The notes: generated by a model not told the origin, from the sequence alone. Counted from the stretch's first letter, positions 195-25,297 are shown. The stretch is DNA of 64,000 nt from a virus (IMGVR_UViG_3300017747_002194:1-64000), one strand, 5' to 3'. Numbers and translations: made by a program.

Positions 195-325
195 AATTAA
201 CAACCAATAAATAAAAATAGGGTGCAAACGATTATAGTTTAAACTAGAGAGATTGACTCCGTTAGCTAAGTGTTCGCTCAAATAATTGAACAGCCCTATT
301 ATTAATTAACAACCAATAAATAAAA
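195..325. repeat. Exact 22-bp direct repeat (aattaacaaccaataaataaaa) at 195-216 and 304-325, flanking an 87-nt structured element
   Basis: Read directly; the internal element (217-303) begins AATAGGGTGC and ends CAGCCCTATTATT, so the termini are inverted-complementary. Confidence 0.6.
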
Positions 326-382
326 GATGAGTGAACATTTTGATAGATTTGTAATTGCAGTATTATTACTATTTTTATTCAT

Positions 383-658
383 TTGGATATTATTAATCTA
401 TTCATAAAACAAATAAATAAAATGGAAACAGTAGACTGGTCAAATAACCAACACATAATAATTGGAATAAATATGGAAACAGTAAAGCAATTGGATGATG
501 AACCCGAAGATTTAGTAGATACAACTGAATTAGATGATGATATTCAATCAAGTGAAAAATACATAGAATGGCTACAAGTAAAAATAGATGCTGAAATGTA
601 TAAACTCGAGCAATTAAAAGAACGTAAAAAAAGTATTGAAATAAAAACCCCTAAATAA
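383..658 (+). CDS. hypothetical protein, acidic
   Basis: 91-aa ORF in an AT-rich genome where random ORFs are short; no recognizable motif. Confidence 0.5.
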   Translation: MDIINLFIKQINKMETVDWSNNQHIIIGINMETVKQLDDEPEDLVDTTELDDDIQSSEKYIEWLQVKIDAEMYKLEQLKERKKSIEIKTPK

Positions 659-824
659 TATATATGCAAGAATCAAAGTTTAAAAAACTAGAAAGCCTTT
701 TTGCCTGGGCTGAGTTCTACTCAAATGGTAAAAACTTAGCTGTTCCAACTAATCCTGATAAGGAAAAGTTTAACAAAGTACAAAAACAAATTTTTGAAGT
801 TAAAAACAAATTAATTGATTAACT

Positions 825-1007
825 ATGGCACAACAAGTTAGAGTACAAGATACTTTAGAGTATCAACAACGTAGAGCTCAAATTCAAAAAGAGATTAATG
901 AAGATAAAGTAGCAATTGATAAAGAATGCTTCAAGAAATCTACAGTAGAGAAATTAGAGCTAAAGAAAAGAATTAGTGAATATAAAAAATCAGTTAAAAA
1001 GAAGTAA
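825..1007 (+). CDS. hypothetical small basic coiled-coil protein
   Basis: 60-aa ORF tightly followed by the next gene (1010). Confidence 0.4.
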   Translation: MAQQVRVQDTLEYQQRRAQIQKEINEDKVAIDKECFKKSTVEKLELKKRISEYKKSVKKK

Positions 1008-1009
1008 TT

Positions 1010-1264
1010 ATGGGAAAATGGAAACCTTACACAACAGGAGAATTAAAATTAGTTAATGATCCTAATTTAACAGCTAGAGCTATTTCTAGAATGACAGGTA
1101 GATCAATGCAATCTATTTATATGAAAAGAAATCATTTAGCTAAAGCAACTAAATCTACTAAAGCTGTTACAACATCTACAGTTAATAATTCAACAATTAG
1201 AGAAATTAATATCAATGGTATTAAAATTCTAATTGACGGTGTTAAATTAAATATTACAATATAA
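1010..1264 (+). CDS. hypothetical protein, possibly with a small HTH
   Basis: 84 aa; stop overlaps the next start (TAATG at 1262-1266). Confidence 0.45.
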   Translation: MGKWKPYTTGELKLVNDPNLTARAISRMTGRSMQSIYMKRNHLAKATKSTKAVTTSTVNNSTIREININGIKILIDGVKLNITI

Positions 1265-1539
1265 TGGCAAAAATCATTGATTTTACAATCATCCTATTCC
1301 TAATAGGATTGATTATTTATTTATTGTCTACAATGTTTAAAATTCCTAAGGAAGAAGAAGCAATTAGAAGAACAAGAACACCTAAAGAGGATGTTGAAAT
1401 TCTTGTTAGACAATTAAAAATGAAGCTTAAAGAAGCTCATGAAGATGCTATTGCAGGTAAAGCTGATGCAGTTAGCAGAATGACTCAGTATGAGTTAGAA
1501 TTACAACAAGCTGAAGAACTATTAAAAAAGTATAATTAA
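1264..1539 (+). CDS. membrane-anchored coiled-coil protein
   Basis: N-terminal hydrophobic helix (IIDFTIILFLIGLIIYLLSTMF) followed by a charged helical region. Confidence 0.5.
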   Translation: MAKIIDFTIILFLIGLIIYLLSTMFKIPKEEEAIRRTRTPKEDVEILVRQLKMKLKEAHEDAIAGKADAVSRMTQYELELQQAEELLKKYN

Positions 1540-1552
1540 AAACTAAAAAAAA

Positions 1553-2770
1553 ATGAATTTAAAAAAAGTATTTATGTTAGGTGGAGCTGTATTAGCTCTA
1601 ATTTTATTAATCAGTTTTAATCCTTTCAGCTACAATCCAGCTGGATCTAGAACTTGTGTAACTCAAGCATCAGGTAATCAGTTTGTACAGTTTCAAACAG
1701 GTGTATTTTGGGCAGGATTCTTTGCTAAAGAAACAGAATGGAGTAATCAAATTTCAGTATCATATGTAGCTGATGAAGCAGATTATGATTTAGTAGATAA
1801 TACTGTAGAAATTGGAAAGATTAACATTCGTTTTAATGATGCAACAACTGCTAAAGTATCAGGAATTACTCAATATGTTTTACCATCCGGTGAAAAAGAA
1901 ATGTTGGAAATTCATAATACACATAGAACACCTGAATCATTAGTTAAACGTAGATTATCACCTTATACTCAAGAGTGTTTACAATCATCAGCTCAATTAT
2001 TAAGTTCTGAAGCACATTATTCAGGAGGTAGAGCTCAAATGGTTCAAGACTATTTAGATCAATTAAAAAATGGAGCTTTCTTATTAAAAGTACAAGAGAA
2101 TAATACTTATGATACTTTAGAAAAAGCTAATAAAAAGATCTATACTGTTGTAACCCAAGTAGATAAGAATGGTCAACCTAAGCGTAAATTTAGTTCTATT
2201 AAAGAATATGAAATTAGTGTAGGTGATGCTCAAATTACTGATGTAGATTATCAAGAACAAGTTGATAATATGTTAGCTAAAAAGATTGAAGCTAGTACTA
2301 AAGCATCTGTTTCTAAACAAGAATTAATGACTGCTCAACAACAGGCTTTAACAATTGAAGCTCAAGGTAAAGCACAATTAGTTAAAATTGAATATGAACA
2401 AAAGCAAGCTCAAACTAAACAAGTTGTAGCTGCTCAGACTCAAGTTCAATTAGCTCAACAGGATTTAGAAAAACAAGCTATTCAAGAGAAAGCAGCTATT
2501 AAAGAAGCTAATAAGATTAAAATCTTAGCTGATGCTGATGCTTATGAAAAACAACGTGCTATTCAAGCCAATGGAGCATTAGAACAAAAAATTGAAGCTG
2601 TAATCACCATTAATAAATATTGGGCTGATGCTTTTGGTAAATACCAAGGTAATATAGTACCTATGTATCAAACAGGAGGTACAACTTCTGGTAATGGTGG
2701 AGTTAGTTTTATGGAATTAATGAGTGCTAGAGCAGCTAAAGACTTATCATTAGATCTTAAAACTAAATAA
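1553..2770 (+). CDS. membrane-anchored protein with a long Q/A/E/K-rich coiled coil, possibly flotillin/SPFH-like
   Basis: N-terminal signal-anchor (VFMLGGAVLALILLISF). C-terminal about 150 aa of EAQ/KQA repeats resembles SPFH-family C-terminal coiled coils. The SPFH core itself was not recognized. Confidence 0.55.
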   Translation: MNLKKVFMLGGAVLALILLISFNPFSYNPAGSRTCVTQASGNQFVQFQTGVFWAGFFAKETEWSNQISVSYVADEADYDLVDNTVEIGKINIRFNDATTAKVSGITQYVLPSGEKEMLEIHNTHRTPESLVKRRLSPYTQECLQSSAQLLSSEAHYSGGRAQMVQDYLDQLKNGAFLLKVQENNTYDTLEKANKKIYTVVTQVDKNGQPKRKFSSIKEYEISVGDAQITDVDYQEQVDNMLAKKIEASTKASVSKQELMTAQQQALTIEAQGKAQLVKIEYEQKQAQTKQVVAAQTQVQLAQQDLEKQAIQEKAAIKEANKIKILADADAYEKQRAIQANGALEQKIEAVITINKYWADAFGKYQGNIVPMYQTGGTTSGNGGVSFMELMSARAAKDLSLDLKTK

Positions 2771-2908
2771 TCTTTCCTTCGCCAGGAAAATCTCCAAGAT
2801 ATATTACTAGAGGGTGATTCATAAAATACTCTAAAAAATATTTTTCTGCTTACCTGAATAGTCTAATCCATACTAAATGTTTACGGTAATAATAAATGGA
2901 TTTTATAT

Positions 2909-3304
2909 GGGGCTAGCCAGGTTTTTGCTCCTTTAATTAATAACTAATAAGCAAGTAGTGAGATGTTAACTATCACTTTAATCTATGTTTTCAAGCTTTA
3001 ATAGGCAATGTTGTAATAACCAACGAAGTAGGAGGCATCGCTGATGTTCTTGCTGTTGTAAAAGGAAGCTCAGCAAAAGTCATTAAATTGACATCTGCGC
3101 CAATTGCAGAAAAATTAGAGTTAGCAGCCTAATATTGGAAAGACGGTGCGTAAAAAGTCTTAAAACTACGGAGCGATGTTTTGTACATTTTATACGCTAG
3201 GAGTAAATGTAATATTCTGTTATAGAAGAAAAAGATTAACTAAACTTGTAGAAAATTAATTATGTGAATTAGAGGAAACGAGGGTTCGACTCCCTCCTAG
3301 CCTC
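2909..3304 (+). ncRNA. ssrA: tmRNA (ssrA)-like gene
   Basis: The 5' GGGGCUAG pairs with the 3' CUAGCCU acceptor strand (one G-U pair). A canonical T-arm GAGGG-UUCGACU-CCCUC (3280-3296) directly abuts the acceptor. An internal short frame ends ...A-E-K-L-E-L-A-A-stop (3106-3132), a tag-peptide-like ...LAA terminus. The total length of about 395 nt fits tmRNA. Confidence 0.45.
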
Positions 3305-3321
3305 CTTAATATTAAAAAAAT

Positions 3322-3798: not shown

Positions 3799-3804
3799 AT
3801 CTTG

Positions 3805-3813: not shown

Positions 3814-3842
3814 TCCACTTAAACAATTAAAAACTAAATAAA

Positions 3843-4583: not shown

Positions 4584-6674
4584 ATGAAACAATTTAATGA
4601 AAAAATTCAAGCACAATTTAATGAAATGTGTAAAACTGGTAAATTATTTAGAAGTAGTTTAACTGGTCAACAAGTTTGGGATTTATACATAAATTCATTT
4701 GAACATGATCCTCAATTTAGAGATCCTGAAAGCTCTGAACACAATTGTAATTTATGTAACAACTTCATTAGAAGATATGGTAACATTGTTACTATTGATG
4801 CAAATTATCAAATTGTTTCAATGTTTGATATAGAAGCTACTGGAGAGTTTACTCCTGTTGTTAAAGCATTATCTAAAGCATTAAAATCAGCTAAAATATC
4901 TGAAGTATTCTTTGAAACATTCACAGAATTAAATAAATTAAACTATGAAAAATGTAGTAAAACAAATCCTACATTTAGATTAGGTATTAATAAGAATGTT
5001 AAAAGATATACTAAAGAAGAGGCTGAAAAGTTTGGTGTAGTTAAACCTAATGAGATTAAAGAATTTAACCATTTACATTTAAATGTACCTACAGTATTTG
5101 TAGATATGACAGGTAAATCAGTAGAATCTTTAATGGCTGATTATAGATCTGCTAAAGAAGTATTTCAAAGAGCTATGGAAACAATCTCTTTAGATACTTT
5201 AGAGTTAGTTAAAGATTTAATTAATCAAGGTTCTTTATTAGATGGACAAACTCATTTGTATAAAATTGAGCAAATTATCCCATTTAAAAAAGAGTTTGAA
5301 ACATTGTCTTCTACTCAAAAAGAAAACTGGTGTTGGTTAACATCTTACAAATTACCATTTGCTAAATTTAGAAATGAGCTTATTGGTGTTTTATGTTCAG
5401 AGTTATCTGAAGGTGAAGAACTTAATAAAGCTTGTCAATCTTGGAATAAAAGAGTAGATCCTGTAAATTACATGAAAACTACAGCTCCTATTACTAAGAA
5501 ACAAATTGATGAAGCTAGAAAGTTTGTTGAAGAAAATGGTTATGTAGAGTCATTTGATAGAAGATTTGCTACAATAGATGATATTAAAGCTTCTGAAATC
5601 TTACATTCTAATGTAGGTAAAGCAGAAGTTAAATCAGTATCTATCTTTGATGGAGTTAAATCTACATCTACTAGACATAAACGTAATGAGTTTGATGGGA
5701 TAGAAGAAGTACCTATTGATAAATTCATGAAAGATATTTTACCAGGTTGTACATCCGTTGAAGCTTTATTATTAAATAGCCATGATGGAAATATGGTTAG
5801 TTTAACTACTGCAAATGTAGAAAATAGTAAACCTATTATGAAATGGGATAACAACTATTCATGGACTTTCAATGGTAATTTAGCTGGTAAATCTCAAATT
5901 AAAGCAAATGTTAAAGCTGCTGGTGGTAAAATTACAGGTATTTTAAGAAGTTCTTTACAATGGAATGATGAAGATACTAAAGGTAGTATTGATTTTGATT
6001 TACATTGCAGAACACCTTTTTCAGAAATCTATTATTCTAACAAATTAGATAGAACTAGTAAAGGATGGTTAGATGTAGACATGATTTGTCCTACTTCAAT
6101 TGGAATTGAAAACATTACTTGGCAAGAAATATTGAAAGATGGTATTTATAAATTCTTTGTTAGAAACTTTAGTGGTCATAAAAATCATAAAGGATTTAAA
6201 TTTGAAATAGAATTTGGTGGTAATGTATTTAATTATCAATATAATCAACCATTTCAAGGAGATATTAGTGTAGCTACAATTACTGTTAAAAATGGTGTAA
6301 TGGAAATTGCACATCATTTACCTGAATCTTCAATGTCTAAAGATATTTATGGTTTAGAAACTAATCAATTCCATAAAGTAAACTTAATTTGTTTATCACC
6401 TAATCATTGGGGAACTAATAATATAGGTAACAAACATTATATGTTTATGTTAGATAAATGTAAATCACCAGTATCAATTAGAAGTTTTCACAATGAGAAC
6501 TTATTACCTGAATTAGCTGAACATCGTAAAGTATTAGAAGTATTAGCTACTACTAATATGATTGATTCAACTGACAAACAATTATCAGGACTTGGATTTA
6601 ATGCAACTGTTAAAGATGAATTAATAGTTAAATTAAGTGGAAGCCATAAAAGAACAATTAAAATTAAATTTTAA
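4584..6674 (+). CDS. hypothetical large protein (696 aa)
   Basis: Long ORF translationally coupled to its neighbours; no motif recognized. Confidence 0.65.
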   Translation: MKQFNEKIQAQFNEMCKTGKLFRSSLTGQQVWDLYINSFEHDPQFRDPESSEHNCNLCNNFIRRYGNIVTIDANYQIVSMFDIEATGEFTPVVKALSKALKSAKISEVFFETFTELNKLNYEKCSKTNPTFRLGINKNVKRYTKEEAEKFGVVKPNEIKEFNHLHLNVPTVFVDMTGKSVESLMADYRSAKEVFQRAMETISLDTLELVKDLINQGSLLDGQTHLYKIEQIIPFKKEFETLSSTQKENWCWLTSYKLPFAKFRNELIGVLCSELSEGEELNKACQSWNKRVDPVNYMKTTAPITKKQIDEARKFVEENGYVESFDRRFATIDDIKASEILHSNVGKAEVKSVSIFDGVKSTSTRHKRNEFDGIEEVPIDKFMKDILPGCTSVEALLLNSHDGNMVSLTTANVENSKPIMKWDNNYSWTFNGNLAGKSQIKANVKAAGGKITGILRSSLQWNDEDTKGSIDFDLHCRTPFSEIYYSNKLDRTSKGWLDVDMICPTSIGIENITWQEILKDGIYKFFVRNFSGHKNHKGFKFEIEFGGNVFNYQYNQPFQGDISVATITVKNGVMEIAHHLPESSMSKDIYGLETNQFHKVNLICLSPNHWGTNNIGNKHYMFMLDKCKSPVSIRSFHNENLLPELAEHRKVLEVLATTNMIDSTDKQLSGLGFNATVKDELIVKLSGSHKRTIKIKF

Positions 6675-7059: not shown

Positions 7060-7132
7060 TAGGAAGTAGTTCAGGAGTAGAGCACCAGATTCATAACCTG
7101 GGGGTTCAGTGGTTCGATTCCACTCTTCCTGA
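7060..7132 (+). tRNA. tRNA-Met/Ile2 (anticodon CAU)
   Basis: Manual fold gives acceptor 7060-7066 / 7125-7131 (U1-G72), D-stem gttc/gagc, anticodon stem ccaga/cctgg around loop uuCAUaa, T-arm agtgg-ttcgatt-ccact, and discriminator A. Confidence 0.6.
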
Positions 7133-7137
7133 CAACA

Positions 7138-7211
7138 TCTCTTCGTCTAATGGTAGGACACTTCCCCTTATATACATGGAAGAAATTGTGGTTCGAGCCC
7201 ACGAGAGACGA
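7138..7211 (+). tRNA. second tRNA-like element with an atypical or unresolved anticodon arm
   Basis: Good T-arm (tgtgg-ttcgagc-ccacg) and D-loop-like taatggtag. The candidate anticodon stem cttcc/ggaag encloses a 12-nt loop, so the anticodon is unassigned; it could be a degenerate tRNA or a tRNA-like structure. Confidence 0.3.
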
Positions 7212-7324
7212 CTATTAATTAAAGATTAAGTACCTCGAATACAGGTGGGGAGTTAATTTATGAACCTATAATCAAAGTATTATTGTATAAGCTTAAAATT
7301 TAATTATTGCTGTCGATAGCAAAT

Positions 7325-7350
7325 AACCACTTAGAGAAATCTAGGTGGTT
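7325..7350 (+). terminator. hairpin aaccac-TTAGAGAAATCTAG-gtggtt followed by a T/A run
   Basis: Inverted repeat read directly; it shares the TAGAGAA(A)TCTA loop with hairpins at 33113 and 53807. Confidence 0.5.
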
Positions 7351-7375
7351 TATTATAAAAACTAATCACTAAATT

Positions 7376-7732
7376 ATGAAATACAGAAAAGGAAAATATT
7401 ATAGTGTAGATTTTAGTAAAGAACTTCCAGAAGATCAGCTTGGGAAATATATTTGGATTTGTAATGAAAATAATAAAAGTCATTACTCTTTTAGAGTAAT
7501 AGAAAAAGGTTCTACTAATAGATTTAATGTTAATGACGATTCTTGTTTTAATAAAAATGATAGTCATGCTTGGTCAAAATCTAAATTAGCTACACCAGAA
7601 GAAATTCAATGGTTGAATCTTTGTATTGAACAAGATAAATATATTCCATTTGAAGAGGCTTTATTATTCTATACTCATAAATCAGATTCATCATTGGAAC
7701 CTATCTATAAAAAATTATTAAACATAAACTAA
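7376..7732 (+). CDS. small paralog family member (type 1, ATPEE-W domain) ending LEPIYKKLLNIN
   Basis: KLATPEEIQWLNLC...IPFEEALL core plus the shared C-terminal tail. Confidence 0.7.
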   Translation: MKYRKGKYYSVDFSKELPEDQLGKYIWICNENNKSHYSFRVIEKGSTNRFNVNDDSCFNKNDSHAWSKSKLATPEEIQWLNLCIEQDKYIPFEEALLFYTHKSDSSLEPIYKKLLNIN

Positions 7733-7737
7733 TTACT

Positions 7738-8073
7738 ATGAACAAATTATTAGACAAATACTACCGTATGCTTTACTTCTGTAAAGGAAAACCTACTACA
7801 TTAGGTCAAATGAGTAATTGGGAATTAGAAGGTATTCTATTACATATTGATAAATACCCTAAAGGTATTTTAAATGGATATGATAAACAAGAATACATTA
7901 ATGCTGTAGATTATATTCTTCAATGTAGAGCTAATTCTAAATCAGAAAGAATGAAAATTATTGAAACTAGGCATGCTAATAATGCATTAGATAAAGCTAA
8001 TAAATTAGCTGATGCAATACTATTAGCAATGCTTAAAACTGAACAACAATATAATAAGAGATTAGTATGTTAA
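7738..8073 (+). CDS. hypothetical protein (no family tail)
   Basis: 111-aa ORF within the tandem array. Confidence 0.5.
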   Translation: MNKLLDKYYRMLYFCKGKPTTLGQMSNWELEGILLHIDKYPKGILNGYDKQEYINAVDYILQCRANSKSERMKIIETRHANNALDKANKLADAILLAMLKTEQQYNKRLVC

Positions 8074-8372
8074 AAAAAGAAGAACTAATTACAGGAGAAT
8101 GTTATGTAAACTCTTATGGAAATATTTTTATATGGGGTATAGGAGATTCAACACATTATTTAGGTAATAGTGCTACAGAATATCATAAAGGTGGTGGTTT
8201 TTTTGATGGTGCTCAAAGATTAGCAACAATAGAAGAGTGTTGGTGGCTAGAGACATGTATAACAATAGGAGATTATATTGAATTTGAAAGGGCTATGGGA
8301 ACATTTAGAACACCAAAGCCTGATGCAGATAAAGATTTAGATATTATTTATAAAAAATTATTAAATGTATGA
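8067..8372 (+). CDS. small paralog family member (type 1) ending DLDIIYKKLLNV
   Basis: RLATIEECWWLETC...IEFERAM core; overlaps its neighbours at start and stop. Confidence 0.7.
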   Translation: MLKKEELITGECYVNSYGNIFIWGIGDSTHYLGNSATEYHKGGGFFDGAQRLATIEECWWLETCITIGDYIEFERAMGTFRTPKPDADKDLDIIYKKLLNV

Positions 8373-8713
8373 AACTACAAGACTGTATAGATGGTGAAAT
8401 ATATTATTGGGAGTCTACAAGGTTTAGGTATATCAATTGGTATAAAAAACCAGAATATCCTTCAGACTTAAATATTAAATGTTATATATCAATAGATAGA
8501 ACTAATTTTTCTTTTAATTCTGCTAGAAATACAAATCCTCAAAATATTAGATTAGCTACACCAGAAGAGAAACATTGGTTACTTTGCTGTGTAAAAGCTG
8601 TTGCATATATTAGTTTTGAAGATGCTTTACTATCATTTACACCAATTAGAGAACCAAATCTTGAAGAGATTAAAGAATTAGAACCTATTTATAAACGTTT
8701 ATTAAATATATAA
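8369..8713 (+). CDS. small paralog family member (type 1) ending LEPIYKRLLNI
   Basis: RLATPEEKHWLLCC...ISFEDALL core. Confidence 0.7.
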   Translation: MKLQDCIDGEIYYWESTRFRYINWYKKPEYPSDLNIKCYISIDRTNFSFNSARNTNPQNIRLATPEEKHWLLCCVKAVAYISFEDALLSFTPIREPNLEEIKELEPIYKRLLNI

Positions 8714-9066
8714 TGATAAAAAATGAAAATTTAATTATTGGAGAATGTTATTTTTGTAAAGATTATGGAGGACATAAAAATAATAGTTACATTCTCAAAT
8801 ACTTAGGTGATATTGACGAATGTCCGCATATAGCTAGTGAAGATAATGATATGCATAAAAATACATTTTATTTAAAAGGAGGCTTTAGCAATAAAGTAAC
8901 TAGATTAGCAACAGCTGAAGAAAAACACTACTTAGAAGAATGTATGATTCATAGTAAATTTATTCCTTATGATGAAGCAATGCTTACTTTTAATAAAAAT
9001 CATAAATCTTATAAAAATGAATCTAAAGAATTAGTACCTATTTACAAAAAACTATTAAACTTATGA
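8713..9066 (+). CDS. small paralog family member (type 1) ending LVPIYKKLLNL
   Basis: RLATAEEKHYLEEC...IPYDEAML core. Confidence 0.7.
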   Translation: MIKNENLIIGECYFCKDYGGHKNNSYILKYLGDIDECPHIASEDNDMHKNTFYLKGGFSNKVTRLATAEEKHYLEECMIHSKFIPYDEAMLTFNKNHKSYKNESKELVPIYKKLLNL

Positions 9067-9296
9067 GAGGGCACAGATTAAACAAGAGACAACCTTTGTC
9101 TCAAGCAATTAAACAGCATGCTAAATTACATGCTAAATACAAAGAGTATTCTGAAAAGACTATTCAAGAATTAGAAGAACTATTACCTATCTTAGGTGGT
9201 GGGTATCGTGAAGTATGTTTATCAGTAATGAAAGAAAAGTTTGTAGCTGATTTAAAATCTAAACAAACTGAAGAAATACCTGAAGGAGAAGCTTAA
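9063..9296 (+). CDS. hypothetical small protein
   Basis: 77-aa ORF coupled within the array; no family motif. Confidence 0.45.
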   Translation: MRGHRLNKRQPLSQAIKQHAKLHAKYKEYSEKTIQELEELLPILGGGYREVCLSVMKEKFVADLKSKQTEEIPEGEA

Positions 9297-9297
9297 T

Positions 9298-9603
9298 ATG
9301 GAAGAGTTTAAACTACCTCAATATTGGAAAGTAAAGTGTGATGAATCTCAAGATAGTGTTTTAACAGATTATATAAATTCGTTAGGTGTATCAAGAAAAA
9401 AATATTATAAAGGCATAGGACATAATAATTGTGTTTATTGGTCTAATAAAGAGTTAATAGGAGATAAACATTATTCTTATAATGAATTTGAAACTCCAGG
9501 TATTACAGAAATCACATATGAACAATTTGAAGAATATGTATTAGGTATAAGTAATAAAGAAGATTCAGATTTAACTGAAATTTATAAAAAATTATTAGGA
9601 TGA
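9298..9603 (+). CDS. small paralog family member (type 2, LPxxW...ITYEQFEEYV domain) ending LTEIYKKLLG
   Basis: FKLPQYWKV...VLTDY...ITYEQFEEYVLGI. Confidence 0.7.
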   Translation: MEEFKLPQYWKVKCDESQDSVLTDYINSLGVSRKKYYKGIGHNNCVYWSNKELIGDKHYSYNEFETPGITEITYEQFEEYVLGISNKEDSDLTEIYKKLLG

Positions 9604-9911
9604 AAGAAAGATTTATATTGCCAGAAAAATGGTACATTGAAGGAGATTCTCATCGTAAAGATGCTAGAGAAGCATGGAATAGCTTGAATGTAGACAAAGG
9701 AGAGTCAGACAATTATGCTTTTTATAAAGGATGCTTTTATTTTTTAGATCTAACAGGTAACAAAGAATATACTACAGGAAAATTACCTGATGATTATATT
9801 GAAATAACACTTGATGATTTCTTAGAGTATGTCGTAGGTATAGCTCCAAATGTAGAAGTAAAAGAAGATCCTGAATTAAATGAAATACTTATTAAACTTT
9901 TAACTAGATGA
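9600..9911 (+). CDS. small paralog family member (type 2) ending LNEILIKLLTR
   Basis: FILPEKWYI...ITLDDFLEYVVGI. Confidence 0.65.
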   Translation: MKERFILPEKWYIEGDSHRKDAREAWNSLNVDKGESDNYAFYKGCFYFLDLTGNKEYTTGKLPDDYIEITLDDFLEYVVGIAPNVEVKEDPELNEILIKLLTR

Positions 9912-10120
9912 TAACAAAAGATAGAGTATTAGAAATTATCTCTAAAAGAGATCCAGGTGAATTAGAACAAATACATGTTATCTCTAGATATATCTTTGAT
10001 AAAACTGGAGAAGATATAACAGGTATAAGTATTAATCCACCACAAGATTATGGTATGTTTAATGTTATGTTACAGATGTACCAAGTTGCCAAACAATATT
10101 ATGGAAATGGAGAGAAATGA
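9908..10120 (+). CDS. hypothetical small protein
   Basis: 70-aa ORF; its stop overlaps the polymerase start. Confidence 0.45.
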   Translation: MITKDRVLEIISKRDPGELEQIHVISRYIFDKTGEDITGISINPPQDYGMFNVMLQMYQVAKQYYGNGEK

Positions 10121-12044
10121 AGTTGACATATTATTTAAAGAATTACAATCTACAGGGTATAAGAAATTATACTTTGTAGGTAATTCTGAAGTATTTGAAA
10201 GTACTTTATATGAAAAAGCAGATATAACACAATGTTCAGATTGGTTAGATAAAATACCTGAAGTTAACTTAGATACAGAGACTGAGGGAATGTTTAATCA
10301 TTCTAATAAGATAGTAATGCTTCAATTAAATTGGGGAAATACTAGCTATGTTATAGATGTAAGAACTATAGATATTTCTCCTCTTAAAAAGAGATTAGAA
10401 AAGATATTAGTAGTAGGTCAAAACTTAAAGTTTGATTATAAATTTTTAAAATTACATGGAATTGAATTAGATAATATTTATGATACATTGTTAGCAGAAT
10501 GTTGTATAACAAATGGTAAAGAAGATAGAGAATTAAATCTAAAAGCTTTAGCTTATAAATATTGTAAAATTGAATTAAATAAAGATGTTAGAAATCAATT
10601 TGTTAACTTAAATGGACAACCATTTACTGAAGCACAAATTGTGTATGGTGTAGGAGATGTTACTTGTTTAACTGAAATTAAAACTAAACAATTAGAATTA
10701 ATTAAACAATTAGATATAGTAGAATGGGTGAATAATGAAATGCAAGCTTGCTTACCATTAGCTGATATAGAGTATAATGGAATGGGCTTTGATAAAGAAG
10801 CTTGGTTAAAACTTGCAAATAAAGCAGAATTAAATGTAGTTAATTACACTGAGGAATTAGATGAGTTAACTAAACAAGAACCTAAATTAGCTAAATTTGT
10901 CAGACAAGAAGTTCAAGGTAACTTATTTGCTGATATAGATGAATCTTTTAGCCATGGTAGAGCTGTAGACATTAAATGGTCTAGTCCTACACAAATGGAT
11001 AAAGTATTCAAAGCTTTAGGTCTAGATATTGAAAAAACAGGTGAAAGATTTTTGACTAAGTATCAAAATGATTATCCTTTAGTTAAAAAATTTATTGACT
11101 ATAAGAAGCAGGCTAAATTAGTTACTACTTATGGTAAGAAATTTTTAAGTTATATAAACCCCACAACACAAAGAATTCATACTAGTTTTTGGCAAATATT
11201 AGATACTACAAGAGTATCTTCAGGAGATAAGTATTCTCCTAATATGCAAAATATTCCAGCTAAAATAGAATATAGAAATTGCTTTATTCCTAGAAAAGGG
11301 TATAAAATGGTTTCTTGTGATTTTAGTGGTCAGGAATTAAGATTAACAGCATTTGGTAGCAAAGAACCTTTATGGGTAGATGCCTTTAACAAAGGAGAGG
11401 ATTTACATTCTAATGTAGCTTCAATGGTATTTCATGTACCTTTAGACAATGTTAGAGATAAACCAGAATTTCTTAGAGGTAAATCTTATAGAGATGCTGC
11501 TAAAACTGTAAACTTTGGATTAGTTTATGGTATGTCAAAATTTAAATTAGCTGATACATTATCTATTGAAGTAGATGCTGCTGATATGATTATTAAAAAC
11601 TATTTTAAAGCTACTGTACAACTTAATAACTTCTTAGCAGGTTGTAGAGCTTATGGTATGAAATATGGCTATATAAGAAGCTTTGCTCCATATAAAATCA
11701 TTAGATATTTCCCTAAATGGAAGCCTGTTAAAGAGGCTATGGATTTCAAAGAAATAGGTTCAATAGAACGTGCTTCAATGAATACTCCTATTCAGGCTAG
11801 CGGTGGTCAAATGACTAAAAGAGCTTTAGTTAGATTAAGAAATTATATTAAAGCTAATAACTTACAAGAAAAGGTTTATATAGTTATGACTGTTCATGAT
11901 CAAATAGATTGTGAGGTTGAAGAATCATTTGTAAATGAATGGTCTTTAATTCAAAAAGAAATAATGGAATCTTCTGGTAGAGAAATAATTACTAATGTAC
12001 CAGTATTATCTGATATAACTATCAGTGATTGTTGGACTAAATAA
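10101..12044 (+). CDS. polA: DNA polymerase I-type (family A) with 3'-5' exonuclease domain
   Basis: Exo motifs LDTETEG and YDTLLAEC. Pol motif A is DFSGQELR, motif B is RDAAKTVNFGLVYG and motif C is VHDQIDCEV. The track begins at 10050, but the start is more plausibly ATG 10101 (MEMERNEV), overlapping the upstream stop. Confidence 0.9.
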   Translation: MEMERNEVDILFKELQSTGYKKLYFVGNSEVFESTLYEKADITQCSDWLDKIPEVNLDTETEGMFNHSNKIVMLQLNWGNTSYVIDVRTIDISPLKKRLEKILVVGQNLKFDYKFLKLHGIELDNIYDTLLAECCITNGKEDRELNLKALAYKYCKIELNKDVRNQFVNLNGQPFTEAQIVYGVGDVTCLTEIKTKQLELIKQLDIVEWVNNEMQACLPLADIEYNGMGFDKEAWLKLANKAELNVVNYTEELDELTKQEPKLAKFVRQEVQGNLFADIDESFSHGRAVDIKWSSPTQMDKVFKALGLDIEKTGERFLTKYQNDYPLVKKFIDYKKQAKLVTTYGKKFLSYINPTTQRIHTSFWQILDTTRVSSGDKYSPNMQNIPAKIEYRNCFIPRKGYKMVSCDFSGQELRLTAFGSKEPLWVDAFNKGEDLHSNVASMVFHVPLDNVRDKPEFLRGKSYRDAAKTVNFGLVYGMSKFKLADTLSIEVDAADMIIKNYFKATVQLNNFLAGCRAYGMKYGYIRSFAPYKIIRYFPKWKPVKEAMDFKEIGSIERASMNTPIQASGGQMTKRALVRLRNYIKANNLQEKVYIVMTVHDQIDCEVEESFVNEWSLIQKEIMESSGREIITNVPVLSDITISDCWTK

Positions 12045-13237: not shown

Positions 13238-13239
13238 CT

Positions 13240-17182: not shown

Positions 17183-17196
17183 TAAATTAAATAAAT

Positions 17197-17263
17197 AATA
17201 GGTGCTCGGCATAATCAGCGTTGGGAGTTAAATGAAGGAATTGTGGAATTCAGCCTATTATTT
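17197..17263 (+). ncRNA. structured intergenic element, family copy B
   Basis: Starts AATAGGTGC and ends CAGCCTATTATTT (termini inverted-complementary). The internal GGGAGTTAAATGAAGGA matches copy C, and a T-run follows. Confidence 0.35.
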
Positions 17264-17280
17264 ATTTTAAATTTAATTAA

Positions 17281-18777: not shown

Positions 18778-19253
18778 TGAAAAGCTTTTTATTAAAAGAT
18801 AATAAACCTATTGTAAAATGGTCTATGATACCAGATAATACATTCTTTGAAGGTAAAGTGCCTGAAGGTTATGCATTAGCTGTAGCTCCATCAGATAATT
18901 ATGTTATATTAGATGTTGATGTTAAAAATGGTAAAAATGGATTTATTCATATACTAGAAACTAAAGGAATTATTGATGAATTAGGTAAAACATTTCATTA
19001 TTCAACTAAATCTGGAGGTGAGCATTATTGGATTAATTATACAGGTGATAAAACTCTTTTAAATAAAGCTACTAAGTATGGATTAGATTTAAGAGTTGCT
19101 AAAGGTTCTTATGCTATGGGATATGTTAAATATCCTCATAATGTAGACATTAGACAATGTATTCCTTTAATTAATAAATCTTCTATGGAATTAAATGTGT
19201 GGTTAGAATCATTATTTCAAGGAGTTAAAACATATGAAAAAAGAATTAGTTGA
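18777..19253 (+). CDS. PrimPol-like (bifunctional primase/polymerase N-terminal domain) protein
   Basis: VILDVDVKNG (hhhDhD) and SGGEHYW (GGxH) motifs. Confidence 0.5.
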   Translation: MKSFLLKDNKPIVKWSMIPDNTFFEGKVPEGYALAVAPSDNYVILDVDVKNGKNGFIHILETKGIIDELGKTFHYSTKSGGEHYWINYTGDKTLLNKATKYGLDLRVAKGSYAMGYVKYPHNVDIRQCIPLINKSSMELNVWLESLFQGVKTYEKRIS

Positions 19254-19623
19254 AGAAAGACTTTTAAAAAGAGCTCACCGTAAAGCAATGAGAAGTAGTA
19301 GGCGTATAAATCATGGAAATATGAAAGAAAAATTTGAATTACCTGAAAAATGGGCCATTAAAAGAACAATGTATAATTCTAAAGCTGTAAATGATTGGAA
19401 TAACAATCATCCTTTATTTAAAGAACAGCGTAGACATCACGCTACTTCTATTGTAGATGGTGGTTACTTTTATAGCGATACAGCACATTGGGGAGAACCT
19501 TTACTTGCAGGATATACAGAAATTACATTTGAACAGTTTCAAGAATATGTATTAAATATAAATCCTGTATCTGATAAATCAGAAGATTATTCTTATCTAA
19601 TCCCTTTAATTAAAACATTATGA
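19234..19623 (+). CDS. small paralog family member (type 2) ending DYSYLIPLIKTL
   Basis: FELPEKWAIK...ITFEQFQEYVLNI. Confidence 0.7.
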   Translation: MKKELVEERLLKRAHRKAMRSSRRINHGNMKEKFELPEKWAIKRTMYNSKAVNDWNNNHPLFKEQRRHHATSIVDGGYFYSDTAHWGEPLLAGYTEITFEQFQEYVLNINPVSDKSEDYSYLIPLIKTL

Positions 19624-19928
19624 TAGACAGATTACCTAAAAATTGGTGTATCAGACAAGATGCACATCAAGATGTTTGTGATTGGTTTAATGCAAAGTAT
19701 GGAATAAGTTCATTTTTAGAAGGAGGGTATACTTATTTATGTAAAGTACCTTTAAAAGATACTGGTAGTATATTTCAAGAAATAGCTCCTATTGGATTTT
19801 TAGAAATTACTTATGAAGAATTTAAATTTTTTATTTTAGATAAAGAACATCTTAAAAAAAGAGTAAAATCAAAACCAGAAGATCTATCGTATCTGATAGA
19901 CTTTTTAAAACAACAACAAATAAATTAA
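19620..19928 (+). CDS. small paralog family member (type 2) ending LSYLIDFLKQQQIN
   Basis: LPKNWCI...ITYEEFKFFILDK. Confidence 0.65.
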   Translation: MIDRLPKNWCIRQDAHQDVCDWFNAKYGISSFLEGGYTYLCKVPLKDTGSIFQEIAPIGFLEITYEEFKFFILDKEHLKKRVKSKPEDLSYLIDFLKQQQIN

Positions 19929-19931
19929 ATT

Positions 19932-22877: not shown

Positions 22878-22878
22878 T

Positions 22879-23124
22879 ATGGGAAGAATTATATTAGCGA
22901 TCGGAGAGCCAGGTACTGGTAAATCAAGAGCTATTTTAAATTTAGATGAGAATAAGACATTATTAGTTAAACCTAATAATAAAGAGCTTCCTTTTAGAGG
23001 AGGTGCTGTGAAATACAGTAAAGAAAAAGGTAATGTAGTAAATTGTTCTACATTTCCAGATTTGAAAGTTATATTAACTAAAGCTAATGAAGGTACTAAA
23101 TTTAGTACAATCGTGATAGAGGAT
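22879..23124 (+). CDS. exon 1 of a P-loop ATPase of AAA_24 (Sak4-like) type
   Basis: Walker A GEPGTGKS and Walker B STIVIED, then an immediate in-frame stop at the proposed intron start. Confidence 0.55.
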
Positions 23125-24130
23125 TAAGAAAATAATATTAAAAATAAATTTGCATAGTATTAAAATTATTTGTATATTTAATGAGTTAATAACTCGAATA
23201 TATAAATATGGAAAATAAAATTAAAAAATTAAATAAAGAAGGAAAAACAGATGTAGAAATTTCAAATATTCTAAATTTACCTTACTATAAAATAGGTAGA
23301 ATTAGAAAAAAATTACAATTATCTGTAAATTATAAACATGAAAATCTTTATATGTCTTCTCAACAAGAAGAAGCATTTATTGGTACATTATTAGGAGATG
23401 CTACTTTAGTCTTTAAAACAAAAGGTTCTAGATACCCATCATTTCAATTTTCTCATACAGAAAAACAAAAAGAATACTTTAATTATAAAGTGAATCTTTT
23501 TAAAACTCTTATGGGTAAACCTAAAATACATCTTTTAAAATCTAAATTTACCTCAGAAGAAGGTGTTTTAGTATATGGAATTCAAAGTTATAATATACCA
23601 TCTTTACTTAAATATAGAAAAATATTTTATCCAAATAATAAAAAGATTATACCCATTGATTTTATAAAAGATAAATTTTCTGAATTAAGTTTAGCTCTTT
23701 TAATTTATGATGATGGGTGTAAAGATAATTTGAATTATAAATTATCAACTTATTGTTTTGAAAGAGAAAATGTTTTAGAATTTTCCAAATTTCTTTATGA
23801 AAAATTTAATATTAAATCAACAGTACATCAAAATAGTGTTTTATATTTTAGTAGACAAGCTACAGAAATTATAACTAAAATACTACAAAAATATCCTGTT
23901 AAAAACATGCAATATAAAATAATAGTGTAAGTCCTCTTTAAATTCTTTTAAAACTGGAAAGTCTTTTAACTAAGATAATCAGTTACCAAGCTAGTGAATG
24001 GTGTAATAGTAGCTAGAAAGGTTCAACGACTAGTAGATAGGAACCTAACCAAATCTACCACGAAATAAGAACATCTAATATTAGATGATGAGATAGTCTG
24101 AACTGCAAATATAAATAGACTAAATTGCAG
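23125..24130 (+). mobile_element. group I intron carrying a LAGLIDADG homing endonuclease ORF
   Basis: Intron core elements R-like GTTCAACGACTAGTAGA (about 24020) and S-like GAGATAGTCTGAAC (about 24089), plus a P9-like hairpin ctgcaa...ttgcag ending in G24130. Exon 1 ends in U, and the frames rejoin at 24131 to give ...VIED|NIGIKS.... Confidence 0.5.
23208..23930 (+). CDS. LAGLIDADG homing endonuclease (intron-encoded)
   Basis: Motifs FIGTLLGDATL and ALLIYDDGCK. Confidence 0.85.
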   Translation: MENKIKKLNKEGKTDVEISNILNLPYYKIGRIRKKLQLSVNYKHENLYMSSQQEEAFIGTLLGDATLVFKTKGSRYPSFQFSHTEKQKEYFNYKVNLFKTLMGKPKIHLLKSKFTSEEGVLVYGIQSYNIPSLLKYRKIFYPNNKKIIPIDFIKDKFSELSLALLIYDDGCKDNLNYKLSTYCFERENVLEFSKFLYEKFNIKSTVHQNSVLYFSRQATEIITKILQKYPVKNMQYKIIV

Positions 24131-24589
24131 AATATAGGGATAAAGAGCCTTATAGATAACAAAATGTTCACACATTTCCTAACTAGTAGAGTTATGGCAG
24201 ATGCTAAGATCTCAGGATTTCAGAAATGGTCTGATTTAGCAGTTGATGTATTTCAAGGATTAATTAAAATTGAAGAGAAATTAAGAGATGATTTAAATGT
24301 AATTGTTATTGGTCATACAGAAAGAAATACAGATGTAAATGGTAATAGTATTATCACTTTACAAACAGTTGGTAAATTATTGGATAACCAAATTAAAATA
24401 CCTTCGTATTTCACCTATGTATTACATTCTGATGTAAAAGAAGTGAATGGAAAGATGGAATATTCATTTTTAACAAATAGTGATGGTCTTAGATTAGCTA
24501 AATCTCCTGAAGGGTGTTTAGATAAGTTTGAACCAAATGATTATGCGTTAATCTTGAGTAAAATACACAAATATCAATTAGGAGAGTAA
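24131..24589 (+). CDS. exon 2 of the AAA_24-like ATPase
   Basis: The frame continues from exon 1, and the track 'start' at 24125 is a TTG. The joined product of about 235 aa has the AAA_24-like layout (..VIVIGHTERN..). Confidence 0.45.
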   Translation, partial: NIGIKSLIDNKMFTHFLTSRVMADAKISGFQKWSDLAVDVFQGLIKIEEKLRDDLNVIVIGHTERNTDVNGNSIITLQTVGKLLDNQIKIPSYFTYVLHSDVKEVNGKMEYSFLTNSDGLRLAKSPEGCLDKFEPNDYALILSKIHKYQLGE

Positions 24590-24628
24590 TTTCCCTAATA
24601 AATTAAATCATTAAATATACAAAAAATT

Positions 24629-25222
24629 ATGTTCGATTTTCAAAATGCTGAGGTATCAAAAGGTAACTATAAAGAAACTATTAAACCAGGAATTCATATT
24701 GTTAAAGTTTCTAAAATTGAGAATGGTGTAAGCTCTAAAGCTGGAGCACCACAAATTACTATTACAGTAGAAGACAATTCAGGAGCTGAATTAGCAAATA
24801 TCTATTCATTAAATACTATTGTAAGTCCAGGTAAAAAAATGTCTGGATGGGATGTAACTAAAAATGCTATTTTATCAATAGTAGCTGCTGCTCATTCTTT
24901 AGATGAGACTTCTGCTAAAGCTAAAATGCCTAATGCTAAATCAGCTGAGGAATTAGCTCAAAAATTATCTATTTTATTAGCAGGTAAAGAGTTCCGTTTA
25001 AAAGTAGTAGGTGAGGAGAAAATCTCTCAAAAAGGTACTAAATATGTAGCTTCTTCATTTGGTAATGGAGTATTCTGTGAGTCTAAATCAGTTTCTGAAA
25101 CAGACAGCAAGTTATTCTTTAATGCTGAAAAGAATATTAAAAAGTTAGCAGTTGAACCAGCTGGTAACTCAGATGCCCAATCAGCATTCTCTAGCCCAGC
25201 TAGTGAAGTTAACTTTGGATAG
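24629..25222 (+). CDS. hypothetical protein, possibly an ssDNA-binding partner of the Sak4-like ATPase
   Basis: Position directly after the AAA_24 gene; no clear OB-fold or SSB motif seen. Confidence 0.3.
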   Translation: MFDFQNAEVSKGNYKETIKPGIHIVKVSKIENGVSSKAGAPQITITVEDNSGAELANIYSLNTIVSPGKKMSGWDVTKNAILSIVAAAHSLDETSAKAKMPNAKSAEELAQKLSILLAGKEFRLKVVGEEKISQKGTKYVASSFGNGVFCESKSVSETDSKLFFNAEKNIKKLAVEPAGNSDAQSAFSSPASEVNFG

Positions 25223-25237
25223 TAACCACTAAGTAAT

Positions 25238-25297
25238 AACAGGTACCCACGGCCAAAGGGAGTAAATGGAAGTAGTATTCTCAGCCTGTTCTTATTT
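25238..25297 (+). ncRNA. structured intergenic element, family copy C
   Basis: AACAGGTACCC...GGGAGTAAATGGAAG...TCAGCCTGTTCTTATTTTT; same architecture as copies A and B. Confidence 0.35.

Follow-up and report, generated by a model that had tools for sequence, protein, structure and literature searches.

Several described elements stand close enough to the repeats considered here to invite comparison. A Rho-independent terminator is a stable G+C-rich stem-loop with a U-tract directly behind it. In phage T7, the RNase III sites are long, irregular duplexes interrupted by an internal loop, and REPs are elements of host genomes. The PeSL cassettes of T4-type phages belong to the early region, where a promoter is joined to a simple hairpin, and act via DNA recombination. 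Among the small ribozymes, the hammerhead core is a three-way junction with CUGANGA, GAAA and UH strands. The pistol ribozyme (env25) has the order P1, linker, P2, P3, with a P1 loop that forms a required 6-bp pseudoknot; GUUAAAU(A)G comes after a hairpin, and an AGGUGC block holds the G-U cleavage site, which precedes the 3' strand of P2. HDV-like ribozymes fold into a nested double pseudoknot (P1-P1.1-P2-P3-P4) with a compact L3 and are cut at their 5' end. A tRNA-like structure is a cloverleaf, or a mimic of acceptor and T arm with a T-loop (UUCRA) and a D-loop. Finally, theta ribozymes are minimal HDV-like ribozymes of gut phages, located 3' of tRNAs, at whose 3' end cleavage takes place (PMC10879173).

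The window analysed here is a stretch of 64,000 nucleotides of viral DNA (IMGVR_UViG_3300017747_002194:1-64000), in which an initial annotation had pointed out three repeats with conserved, mutually pairing termini. These repeats are copies of one RNA fold, in which a strictly conserved junction joins three helices. The family to which the fold belongs is restricted to phages, lies on the sense strand and is placed exactly between genes. The coordinates and termini were confirmed for copy A (217-303, AATAGGGTGC...ACAGCCCTATT), copy B (17197-17263, AATAGGTGC...TCAGCCTATT) and copy C (25238-25297, AACAGGTACC...TCAGCCTGTT). The terminal pairing also holds in all three, with a compensatory change in C (AACAGG/CCUGUU against AAUAGG/CCUAUU), and the internal GGGAGT(T)AAATG(G)AAG shared by B and C occurs exactly twice in the window (0.00 expected). 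The pattern AGGTRC..CAGCCY has three matches in the window against 0.10 expected, one of which (2622-2662, minus strand) is a false hit in coding sequence. A covariance model was built from relatives and the whole window was scanned filter-free; model R2 matched B (50.1 bits, E = 2.5e-8) and C (28.2 bits, E = 0.002) and nothing else in the window, and copy C scores 81.9 bits with model R1. A further stretch at 32460-32530, put forward as a weaker relative, proved to be no copy: it has only GTTAAATG in common, a sequence with 4 occurrences in the window against 4.7 expected, and has neither an AGGU/GCCU closing helix nor a model match.

The idea of structured elements with pairing ends was borne out by a covariation check, which yielded the conserved three-helix fold on the sense strand. 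The order is P1, G, a variable hairpin P2, (N)UAAA, and a hairpin P3 that opens with UG and closes with CA. P1, the closing helix, has an AU-rich outer part followed by AGG(G)U/GCC(C)U. About 16 conserved nucleotides make up the junction, namely GG(G)U.G, the single G, the basal C-G pair of P2, (N)UAAA, and the basal U-A and G-C pairs of P3; the search patterns used account in part for the invariance of AGGU, UUAAAUG and CAGCCU. Since no nucleotide separates P3 from P1, these two helices would be expected to stack coaxially.

When 30 distinct members are aligned on the junction, 80.7% of the cells are paired against 66.9% after shuffling, a value reached by 0 of 500 shuffles, while slid controls gave 31-45% and the covariation score was 0.375 against 0.153. 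A covariance-model alignment of 38 distinct full-length members gave 82.0% paired against 67.5%, with covariation of 0.362 against 0.137. The covariation is strong in P1 and P2; P3 is short and irregular. Each of the first four pairs of P2 is 73-97% paired and occurs as 4-5 pair types (30-member alignment), and P2 stacks for a mean of 4.2 bp with its own strands against 2.2 bp when strands are mixed between members, even as its sequences turn over unusually fast. The loops, those of P3 included, are conserved in neither length nor sequence, and a search for loop complementarity (3.62 against 3.77 in shuffles) found no pseudoknot or loop-loop contact. Paired positions hold 35 G.U cells against 20 A.C cells, besides an invariant U.G pair. 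Considering this excess of G.U pairs together with the sense orientation, we infer that the element acts as RNA rather than as DNA.

Copy B, defined by sequence, fold and covariance model, extends over 17189-17267 on the + strand. Its P1 pairs 17189-17203 with 17253-17267 (AAAUAAAUAAUAGGU / GCCUAUUAUUUAUUU) and is followed by G5 at 17204, P2 (CUC 17205-17207 / GAG 17225-17227, with a 17-nt interior), the junction UUAAA at 17228-17232 and P3 (UGAA 17233-17236 / UUCA 17249-17252). With its flanks, copy B folds at an MFE of -21.7 kcal/mol (z = -2.9), and orthologous elements occupy its site in the contigs L001, L003, L004, L005, L008, L013 and L020. Copy C, also on the + strand, is defined by sequence, fold and both models and extends over 25231-25297. 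Here P1 has an inner part (AACAGGU 25238-25244 / GCCUGUU 25284-25290) and an outer part (25231-25236 / 25292-25297), and the remaining features are A5 at 25245, P2 (CCC 25246-25248 / GGG 25258-25260), the junction AG+UAAA at 25261-25266, P3 (opening UG 25267-25268, closing CA 25282-25283) and a U-run at 25295-25299. Its orthologues are found in L006, L007, L009, L020 and L016-19.

Copy A (216-300, + strand) is a divergent variant that is matched by neither covariance model, R1 or R2, and its architecture was assigned by eye. The assignment gives P1 at 216-223 / 293-300 (AAUAGGGU / GCCCUAUU), G at 224, P2 at 225-230 / 260-265 (CAAACG / CGUUAG, 5 of 6 pairs, 29-nt interior), CUAAG at 266-270 in place of UUAAA, and P3 at 271-276 / 286-292 (UGUUCG / UUGAACA). 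Its termini AGGGUG/CAGCCCU, the GGG/CCC form, are also seen in genuine members from other phages. A 22-nt direct repeat without mismatch, AATTAACAACCAATAAATAAAA, flanks copy A on both sides, at 195-216 and again at 304-325 on the + strand, the right copy immediately preceding the ATG at 327. The repeat has exactly two copies in the window (0.04 expected), and the final bases of the left one form the outer 5' strand of the P1 of copy A.

Copies B and C are part of a wider family of about 40 distinct members, found in related contigs of the crAss-like type as well as in phage contigs that are unrelated. In viral contigs, 18 of 35 distinct pattern matches had a P2 of 4 bp or more; in the 596 Gb of bacterial genomes searched, where the same pattern gave chance matches only, 0 of 75 did. 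Across the sequences searched, the motif is thus confined to phages. An identical junction sequence recurs in contigs that differ in GC content and have no neighbouring proteins in common; no neighbouring protein common to the family was found, and the genes downstream fall into no common class. The fold is also new to Rfam, in which no family matches it. A scan of the window at gathering thresholds against Rfam 15, whose families include hammerhead, twister, twister-sister, pistol, hatchet and HDV-like ribozymes, riboswitches and known phage motifs, returned tRNA-Met alone, and there was no relevant family for B and C at E <= 10 or for five other loci at E <= 1.

As the initial annotation had it for the window, every genuine family member lies between genes and is sense to its neighbours. 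The usual member starts 5-28 nt past a stop codon and ends about 22-31 nt ahead of the next ATG, and several copies per genome precede unrelated genes. Where Shine-Dalgarno sequences are visible (L047, L194), they lie outside P1. In at least four unrelated lineages the element adjoins a tRNA, ending 4-10 nt 5' of tRNA position +1 (L045/L062/L155, L056, L059, L189); L155 has two tandem copies between two tRNAs. The element in L025 begins 21 nt 3' of a tmRNA, and that in L184 is squeezed between a canonical terminator ending 6 nt upstream and an ORF beginning 6 nt downstream.

What could such an element do at these boundaries? The best reading, which we put forward tentatively, is that it may be a cis-acting boundary or "punctuation" element of polycistronic phage RNA, serving 3'-end formation or processing. 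The elements would be co-transcribed with the flanking genes, and the sense RNA would fold into a compact three-way junction in which P1 holds the end of one unit against the beginning of the next and the variable hairpins P2 and P3 project from the conserved junction. RNA ends between adjacent units would thereby be both created and protected. For B and C in the window phage, the 15-bp AU-rich P1 and the U-rich tail lead us to expect the elements to attenuate transcription, to terminate it or to block 3' exonucleases, much as ordinary hairpin+U terminators do in that slot of relatives; that no other intergenic terminator-like site turned up on the + strand of the 33-kb module agrees with this. 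Across the family, a universal host nuclease or the RNA itself could recognise the invariant junction for processing, and the recurrence of one junction sequence in contigs of differing GC content without common neighbouring proteins would fit such specific recognition. Both the termination and the cleavage are predicted. Several considerations count against the boundary reading: a conserved junction is superfluous for a simple stabiliser or terminator, termination right ahead of a tRNA makes little sense, the B and C cores are no stabler than shuffled sequence, the GC-richer members have no U-run, and the L184 member follows a canonical terminator. Nor is any nuclease known to recognise this junction, or any neighbouring protein shared by the family.

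It is conceivable, if doubtful, that the family constitutes a class of small RNA, catalytic or nuclease-directing, that is new to science and used as transcript punctuation by several unrelated phage lineages. If so, a three-way junction with about 16 fixed core nucleotides would, without host-specific factors, sever polycistronic RNA between cistrons and ahead of tRNAs. The catalytic version, a new small self-cleaving ribozyme class with the junction as the active site that cuts between units, we consider likewise rather unlikely. Such a cut would leave one hairpin at the 3' end of the upstream RNA and another at the start of the downstream RNA or tRNA leader, much as in natural RiboJ-type insulators. 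About 16 invariant junction nucleotides amid helices of free sequence and length are the usual signature of a small ribozyme, the junction requires no host-specific factor, and the motif is restricted to phages yet spread across unrelated lineages. Tandem copies inside a tRNA array would fit as well, as would the position exactly between units and beside tRNAs, which is that of the phage HDV-like theta ribozymes (PMC10879173). Nevertheless, the junction is tiny (1 + 5 + 0 unpaired nt), a pseudoknot or loop-loop contact is not detectable, one strict pattern found no circularly permuted form, and new classes are seldom met among new motifs.

Nor does any Rfam ribozyme family match, even at E <= 10, and a comparison by hand showed a topology unlike that of the hammerhead, pistol, HDV-like/theta or twister ribozymes. 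The hammerhead was rejected on its junction, the strands here being G, (N)UAAA and none, and on the lack of an Rfam match. An HDV-like or theta assignment was rejected as well: P2, the would-be P3/L3, is 4-7 bp long with loops of 4-40 nt, a hand check found no upstream 7-nt partner for UUAAAUG, and the elements lie 5' of tRNAs. The pistol ribozyme was rejected on loop complementarity (3.62 against 3.77 shuffled), a different helix order and the absence of an Rfam match at E <= 10.

If the three-way junction simply served as a terminator hairpin, with the U-rich 3' flank as its U-tract, the family would consist of elaborate Rho-independent terminators or attenuators and nothing more, conserved by common descent or horizontal spread. 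This we regard as unlikely. The elements are indeed sense at gene 3' ends, and genuine members have a mean of 8.1 T (U in the RNA) among the 12 nt following GCC. The U5 of copy C overlaps the end of P1, and in copy B UUUU are the last four paired bases of the P1 3' strand; the T-rich run noted after the termini of B and C is real, most of it being the 3' strand of the AU-rich P1. The C slot is occupied by a plain hairpin and U-run in the relatives L010-L015 and L021-23 and by the three-way junction in L017 and the window, and the + strand of the 33-kb module has no other intergenic terminator-like site. On the other hand, the GC-richer members L186, L189, L192 and both L194 copies have no U-run, other members sit 4-10 nt 5' of tRNAs or in tandem within a tRNA array, and the L184 member directly follows a canonical terminator. 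Considering that a tRNA follows within 4-10 nt or an ATG within 22-31 nt, it is difficult to see the elements as standing at ends of transcription units, as Rho-independent terminators do. The closing stem is weak (core AGGU/GCCU) and the overall stability unexceptional; for B and C the terminator reading is weakened because their cores are no stabler than shuffled sequence (z = -0.7 and +0.3; C with flanks, z = -0.2), and a terminator scan called neither. The invariant junction in unrelated phages and the bacterial absence are also left unexplained. The initial suggestion of a complex terminator stays plausible for B and C only, with their P1 of about 15 AU-rich bp followed by a U-run.

The element might also bind a ligand or protein and in this way control the unit downstream, P1 formation being coupled to occupancy of the junction; it would then be a translational operator, a signal for processive antitermination or an attenuator of the riboswitch kind. 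We consider this quite improbable. Such a reading would agree with the conserved junction amid variable helices, the short, fairly constant distance from the element to the next start codon or tRNA, the tandem arrangement (as in some riboswitches) and the terminator-like stem that P1 also forms in B and C. However, G + UUAAA makes a tiny pocket, the visible Shine-Dalgarno sequences (L047, L194) lie outside P1, many members lack a terminator tail, and no neighbouring protein or downstream gene class is shared, several copies in one genome preceding unrelated genes.

A small stable RNA acting in trans, whether by base pairing through the variable P2 loop or as a decoy or sponge that occupies a host factor or defence system, is very unlikely. 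Enzymes of tRNA processing would excise a discrete RNA with helical ends from tRNA arrays, and the rapid turnover of P2 and the occurrence in phages only could speak for such a role, but the variable parts are mainly base-paired and little exposed, loop sequence and length are not conserved, no sign of a promoter was found, and the location is tightly bound to gene boundaries. A tRNA or tRNA-like structure was rejected on variable P3 loops and on the absence of a call from ARAGORN or the Rfam tRNA model, and a mini-ORF from the conserved AUG on its differing length, frame and sequence (M*, ML*, MSN*, MT*, up to 14 codons).

A non-autonomous cassette that inserts or recombines at intergenic hairpins, of the MITE/REP kind or like the promoter-stem-loop cassettes of T4-type phages, with the RNA structure incidental, would explain why B-site interiors are exchanged wholesale between near-identical flanks (window, L001, L020, L002), why the same interior appears in other flanks (L001, L075, L048), why P2 and P3 re-assort (L032/L043), why the C slot is polymorphic for presence or absence and why a perfect 22-nt direct repeat surrounds copy A, but it is highly improbable against an always sense orientation, G.U pairs that exceed A.C pairs, covarying helices in which the junction sequence alone is fixed, length differences that fall within hairpins, a C slot in which one hairpin replaces another, no transposase or recombinase seen in association, and B and C sites with neither target-site duplications nor an empty-site/filled-site pair. 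The REP/MITE-like character once suggested for the repeats finds no support in that form: they are absent from host genomes, show no signature of terminal repeats or target duplication at B or C, and number 2-3 per 64 kb, all strictly sense, rather than occurring in many copies in either orientation.

How, then, does the putative boundary element relate to known systems? Like Rho-independent terminators, B and C have a U-rich tract after the stem and a complementary A-rich tract before it, are sense at gene 3' ends, and are interchangeable by position with ordinary hairpin+U terminators in relatives; unlike them, the motif is branched, with only about 4 strong closing pairs and a junction invariant across unrelated phages, many members have no U-run or lie just 5' of tRNAs, and none occur in bacterial genomes. 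The pistol resemblance is one of sequence, in the hairpin followed by GUUAAAU(A)G and in the AGGUGC block, whereas helix order and connectivity are irreconcilable even by circular permutation and the loops vary in length and sequence. As in PeSL cassettes, repeated intergenic stem-loops undergo modular exchange between conserved flanks, yet here the unit is a covarying three-helix fold with an invariant junction, conserved well beyond one phage group. T7 RNase III sites, REPs and intercistronic hairpins are likewise repeated, structured elements of about 60-100 nt with shared sequence features; the three-way-junction consensus and the tRNA association set the motif apart from the first two. 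With intercistronic processing and stabiliser structures it has in common a position between co-oriented genes in a long phage transcript, where RNA ends would be expected to be defined and protected. Theta ribozymes are a nested double pseudoknot 3' of tRNAs, while the motif is a simple three-way junction, usually 5' of tRNAs, with variable loops, no detectable pseudoknot, no HDV-like Rfam match and a putative cleavage. Both, however, are small, phage-specific and found adjoining tRNA genes in arrays as well as elsewhere in phage genomes, and the role proposed for theta ribozymes, the maturation of RNA ends, resembles the one we propose for the motif (PMC10879173).

Two of the intergenic elements on the + strand of the window, copies B (17189-17267) and C (25231-25297), are members of a real, structured family with a conserved three-way junction, and copy A (216-300) is treated as a divergent variant of that family. 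Inspection of the sequence bore out the initial annotation on the positions and ends of all three copies and on the pairing of their termini, with C carrying a compensatory change (AACAGG/CCUGUU, versus AAUAGG(G)/(C)CCUAUU in A and B). The terminal pattern AGGTRC..CAGCCY has 3 matches in the window against 0.10 expected, one of them a coding false hit on the opposite strand, and the internal block common to B and C is found exactly twice where 0 are expected. A weaker related stretch had been noted at 32460-32530 and is not a member: it has only GTTAAATG in common with the others (an octamer found 4 times where 4.7 are expected), lacks a closing helix, and gave no match to the family model. 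Nor is CAGCCTAAT at about 3124, within a 552-nt gap, a copy; it is the end of the tag reading frame of a tmRNA. A filter-free scan of the window with the second covariance model (CM R2) gave just two matches, B at 50.1 bits and C at 28.2 bits, and none at A. By eye, every part is present in A, namely a closing helix P1 (AAUAGGGU/GCCCUAUU), a G, a P2 hairpin (CAAACG/CGUUAG), a five-nucleotide junction CUAAG, and a P3 hairpin (UGUUCG/UUGAACA). Its GGG/CCC termini are those of a second viral set, matching an AGGGTG-type pattern, and it is flanked on both sides by a perfect 22-nt direct repeat.

The fold can be read from orthologous sites in related contigs. At the B site, upstream of the homologue of a 247-aa ORF, elements in L001, L003, L004, L005, L008, L013 and L020 keep a constant frame with differing helix sequences, and the same is true of relatives at the C site, after the homologue of a 197-aa ORF. 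P1 consists of an outer AU-rich part of up to 12 bp followed by A-U, two or sometimes three G-C pairs, and U.G. It leads through a single purine, mostly G, to the P2 hairpin, whose stem has 3-7 bp and whose loop ranges from 4 to about 40 nt, then to a junction strand of 5 nt (UUAAA, more rarely GUAAA or AUAAA), and finally to the P3 hairpin, which always opens with UG, closes with CA, and passes into the 3' strand of P1 without a linker. Compensatory changes in P2 include UCAA/UUGA (L001) versus GCAA/UUGC (L048), GCUAGA/UCUAG (L016) versus GCUAGG/CCUAG (L058), and the series UUAAUC/GAUUAG (L003), UUAAUC/GAUUAA (L004), UUAUUC/GAAUAA (L041) and CUAUUC/GAAUAG (L064).

A plain MAFFT alignment misplaced the junction, and RNAalifold recovered only the inner P1 from a gap-rich covariance-model alignment. 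For this reason, two other alignments were used: a gap-free one of 30 distinct members, anchored at the junction with the hairpin tips trimmed, and a covariance-model alignment of 38 distinct full-length members. Paired cells made up 80.7% of the anchored alignment, compared with 66.9% in shuffled controls (0 of 500 reached the observed value) and 31-45% in slid controls, with a covariation score of 0.375 versus 0.153; these figures come from the same sequences from which the structure was derived. The corresponding values for the covariance-model alignment, which is biased toward that structure, were 82.0%, 67.5%, 37-51%, and 0.362 versus 0.137. In the anchored alignment, P2 pairs 1-4 are paired in 73-97% of members with 4-5 pair types each, and the outer P1 pairs alternate among AU, UA, GC and GU. 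An independent test compared the members' own strands with those of other members, giving 4.2 versus 2.2 stacked pairs for P2 and only 1.7 versus 1.5 for P3 beyond its UG/CA. In P3, two pairs are invariant and a third forms in 25 of 30 members, with five types, but since the fourth and fifth positions pair in less than half of the members, the helix is short or irregular. AGGU, UUAAAUG and CAGCCU are invariant in part because of the patterns with which members were collected.

Where does the family occur? The pattern AGGTG-N-TTAAATG-N-CAGCCTATT matched 51 viral loci, and P2 formed at least 4 contiguous pairs in 18 of 35 distinct viral matches. As a negative control, the same pattern matched 102 loci in a 596-Gb set with one genome for each of 185,579 species of bacteria and archaea, and none of the 75 distinct matches examined had such a P2. 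The sole genuine-looking element in the control set, detected by the covariance model and not through the P2 test, is in L155, a phage-like tRNA-array contig within a metagenome-assembled genome. A second pattern, AGGGTG..CAGCCCTA, added 11 viral loci, most of them with good P2 and P3 helices and from GC-richer phages. Contigs outside the crAss-like clade have no neighbouring proteins in common with the clade or with one another. Together with the pattern matches and the bacterial control, this indicates that the motif is phage-specific and spread across many lineages.

The interiors of the elements turn over within conserved surroundings. The window, L001, L020 and L002 have nearly identical flanks and outer P1 at the B site, and where the neighbouring protein was compared (L001, L002) its identity is 93-94%; the interiors, by contrast, are unrelated. 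L002 (2849-2978, orthologous to window 17189-17267) retains the same AU-rich outer stem and carries a structured insert of about 120 nt, with an inner stem AUGUAU/AUACAU, instead of the three-way junction. The L001 interior is found again within other flanks (L075, L048), and P2 and P3 re-assort among members. These swaps imply either recombination between conserved blocks or selection for diversity, and hairpin turnover between identical flanks points to a recombination or diversification process at element sites. The C slot of relatives holds a canonical terminator (ACTCCTTAACC-CCGT-AAGGTTAGGGAGT-TTTTT) or a long hairpin with a U-run in L010-L015 (about 10590-10680) and L021-L023 (about 10590-10800), and a third variant in L008, with a GGGCUAAGU junction resembling that of copy A.

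Every genuine member lies between genes, in the sense orientation. Among 31 members, a stop codon on the same strand mostly precedes the start of the element by 5-28 nt, and the next ATG lies 22-31 nt beyond the GCC; GC-rich members are placed alike. Outside the crAss-like clade the element often adjoins tRNAs, ending 4-10 nt before tRNA position +1 in L045/L062/L155, L056, L059 and L189. In L155, the space between two tRNA-Leu genes is taken up by two tandem elements, and in L025 the start of an element is 21 nt downstream of a phage tmRNA. In such cases the 3' strand of P1 reaches tRNA position -1 or -2. P1 thus ties together the end of one unit and the beginning of the following one. The L045 array also contains a ROOL RNA (5403-5987; Rfam 317.7 bits) and amber-suppressor-type tRNAs with a CUA anticodon, called tRNA-Pyl by ARAGORN. 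In L184 (minus strand), in the stretch about 70 nt upstream of the element, a canonical terminator reaches to within 6 nt of it, and a lipoprotein-like ORF starts 6 nt after it, with the conserved AUG of the junction in frame with this ORF and no intervening stop.

The window itself is AT-rich phage DNA without a BLAST match among 50,697 deposited phages; two other lineages likewise had no DNA match to annotated phages. Its relatives in IMG/VR are 86-91 kb long, and its PolA (10050-12044) is only about 30% identical to those of crAss-like phages. PolA and primase (25486-26478) belong to a 33-kb replication-type module on the + strand, which converges on a - strand module. At the convergence, a 15-bp hairpin between A- and T-runs (33111-33144) looks like a classical bidirectional terminator. 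The - strand module includes a single 4060-aa ORF (37146-49328) with no Pfam match, which in size recalls the giant virion proteins, or the RNA polymerases, of crAss-like phages. At the end of the + strand module, a 282-nt non-coding gap (32345-32626; -53.7 kcal/mol, z = -2.5 versus shuffles) is unrelated to the family and may hold another ncRNA. The 552-nt gap at 2771-3321 is a phage-encoded tmRNA homologue that neither ARAGORN nor the gathering-threshold scan with Rfam picked up; it aligns to the tmRNA that ARAGORN called in L025, a relative (11400-11786), its tag reading frame ends ..EKLELAA* (about 3100-3132), and its T-arm is GGGTTCGACTCCC (about 3282-3294). Directly after tRNA-Met (7060-7133), non-coding DNA at 7134-7375 with a T-arm-like GGTTCGAGCCCAC (about 7189-7201) may be a second tRNA, degenerate or interrupted, called by no tool. 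A free-standing LAGLIDADG_2 homing endonuclease gene (23208-23930; Pfam E = 2.4e-30) with non-coding, GC-richer flanks (23128-23207, 23931-24124) may be a mobile insertion or intron remnant; Rfam reported no intron there. Paralogous small ORFs of about 100 aa, in several families (7376-10120, 12071-13850, 19234-19930), share start and end motifs (repeat families D1-D13), such as ATGAAAGAA..CCTGAAAAATGG and ..TATAAAAAATTATTAAA.

That the element acts as RNA is indicated by its sense orientation, by G.U outnumbering A.C (35 versus 20) and by the invariant U.G; its function is probably RNA boundary formation or processing. One tentative proposal, a cis-acting RNA boundary element, covers all contexts: P1, with the U-tail in AT-rich phages, would form or protect RNA ends, and a universal nuclease or the RNA itself would recognise the conserved junction for processing. 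Fold, strand, placement and distribution are demonstrated; termination and cleavage are inferred. Could the element simply be a terminator? In favour of a terminator-like role in this phage, A-rich and U-rich flanks extend P1 of B and C to about 15 bp, and both copies end in U-runs; at the C slot, the place that the junction element takes in the window and L017 is filled by an ordinary hairpin with a U-run in L010-L015 and L021-L023; and the + strand module of the window has no other intergenic terminator-like site. However, the cores of B and C are no more stable than shuffles, GC-rich members lack U-runs, elements stand directly before tRNAs and in tandem, the L184 element already follows a canonical terminator, and a terminator would not require the invariant junction. 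A new ribozyme class is an unlikely candidate. A linear duplex DNA site or promoter is rejected, as the conserved blocks are separated by variable hairpins (12-60 and 13-33 nt); no Bacteroidota-type -7 box is conserved downstream by eye, a mini-ORF at the conserved AUG is not conserved, and no common neighbouring protein was found across lineages.

RNA signals are almost unannotated in phage genomes, particularly in crAss-like and other uncultured lineages, and this compact, readily recognised, phage-specific motif marks the boundaries between units in at least a dozen unrelated lineages. If RNA is terminated or processed by the motif, it would help to work out operon structure and RNA maturation in uncultured phages and could supply a portable insulator part; if the junction is catalytic or factor-binding, it would represent a new RNA class.

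The motif is absent from Rfam 15, in both a gathering-threshold scan of the window and E-value scans, and no description of it was found in the literature, which is weak evidence of novelty. The hammerhead, HDV/theta, pistol and twister topologies were mapped by hand, and none fits. Theta ribozymes are located 3' of tRNAs (PMC10879173). The compact P3/L3 and the junction-strand partner that HDV-like and theta ribozymes require are both missing from the motif, as are the core strands of the hammerhead. Loop-loop or pseudoknot complementarity did not rise above shuffles, and one strict, narrow pattern for a circularly permuted form had 0 matches in viral contigs, weak evidence of its absence. 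Downstream of a hairpin the pistol ribozyme, like the motif, has GUUAAAU(A)G, and an AGGUGC block is likewise common to the two, but the helix order and obligatory pseudoknot of pistol do not fit.
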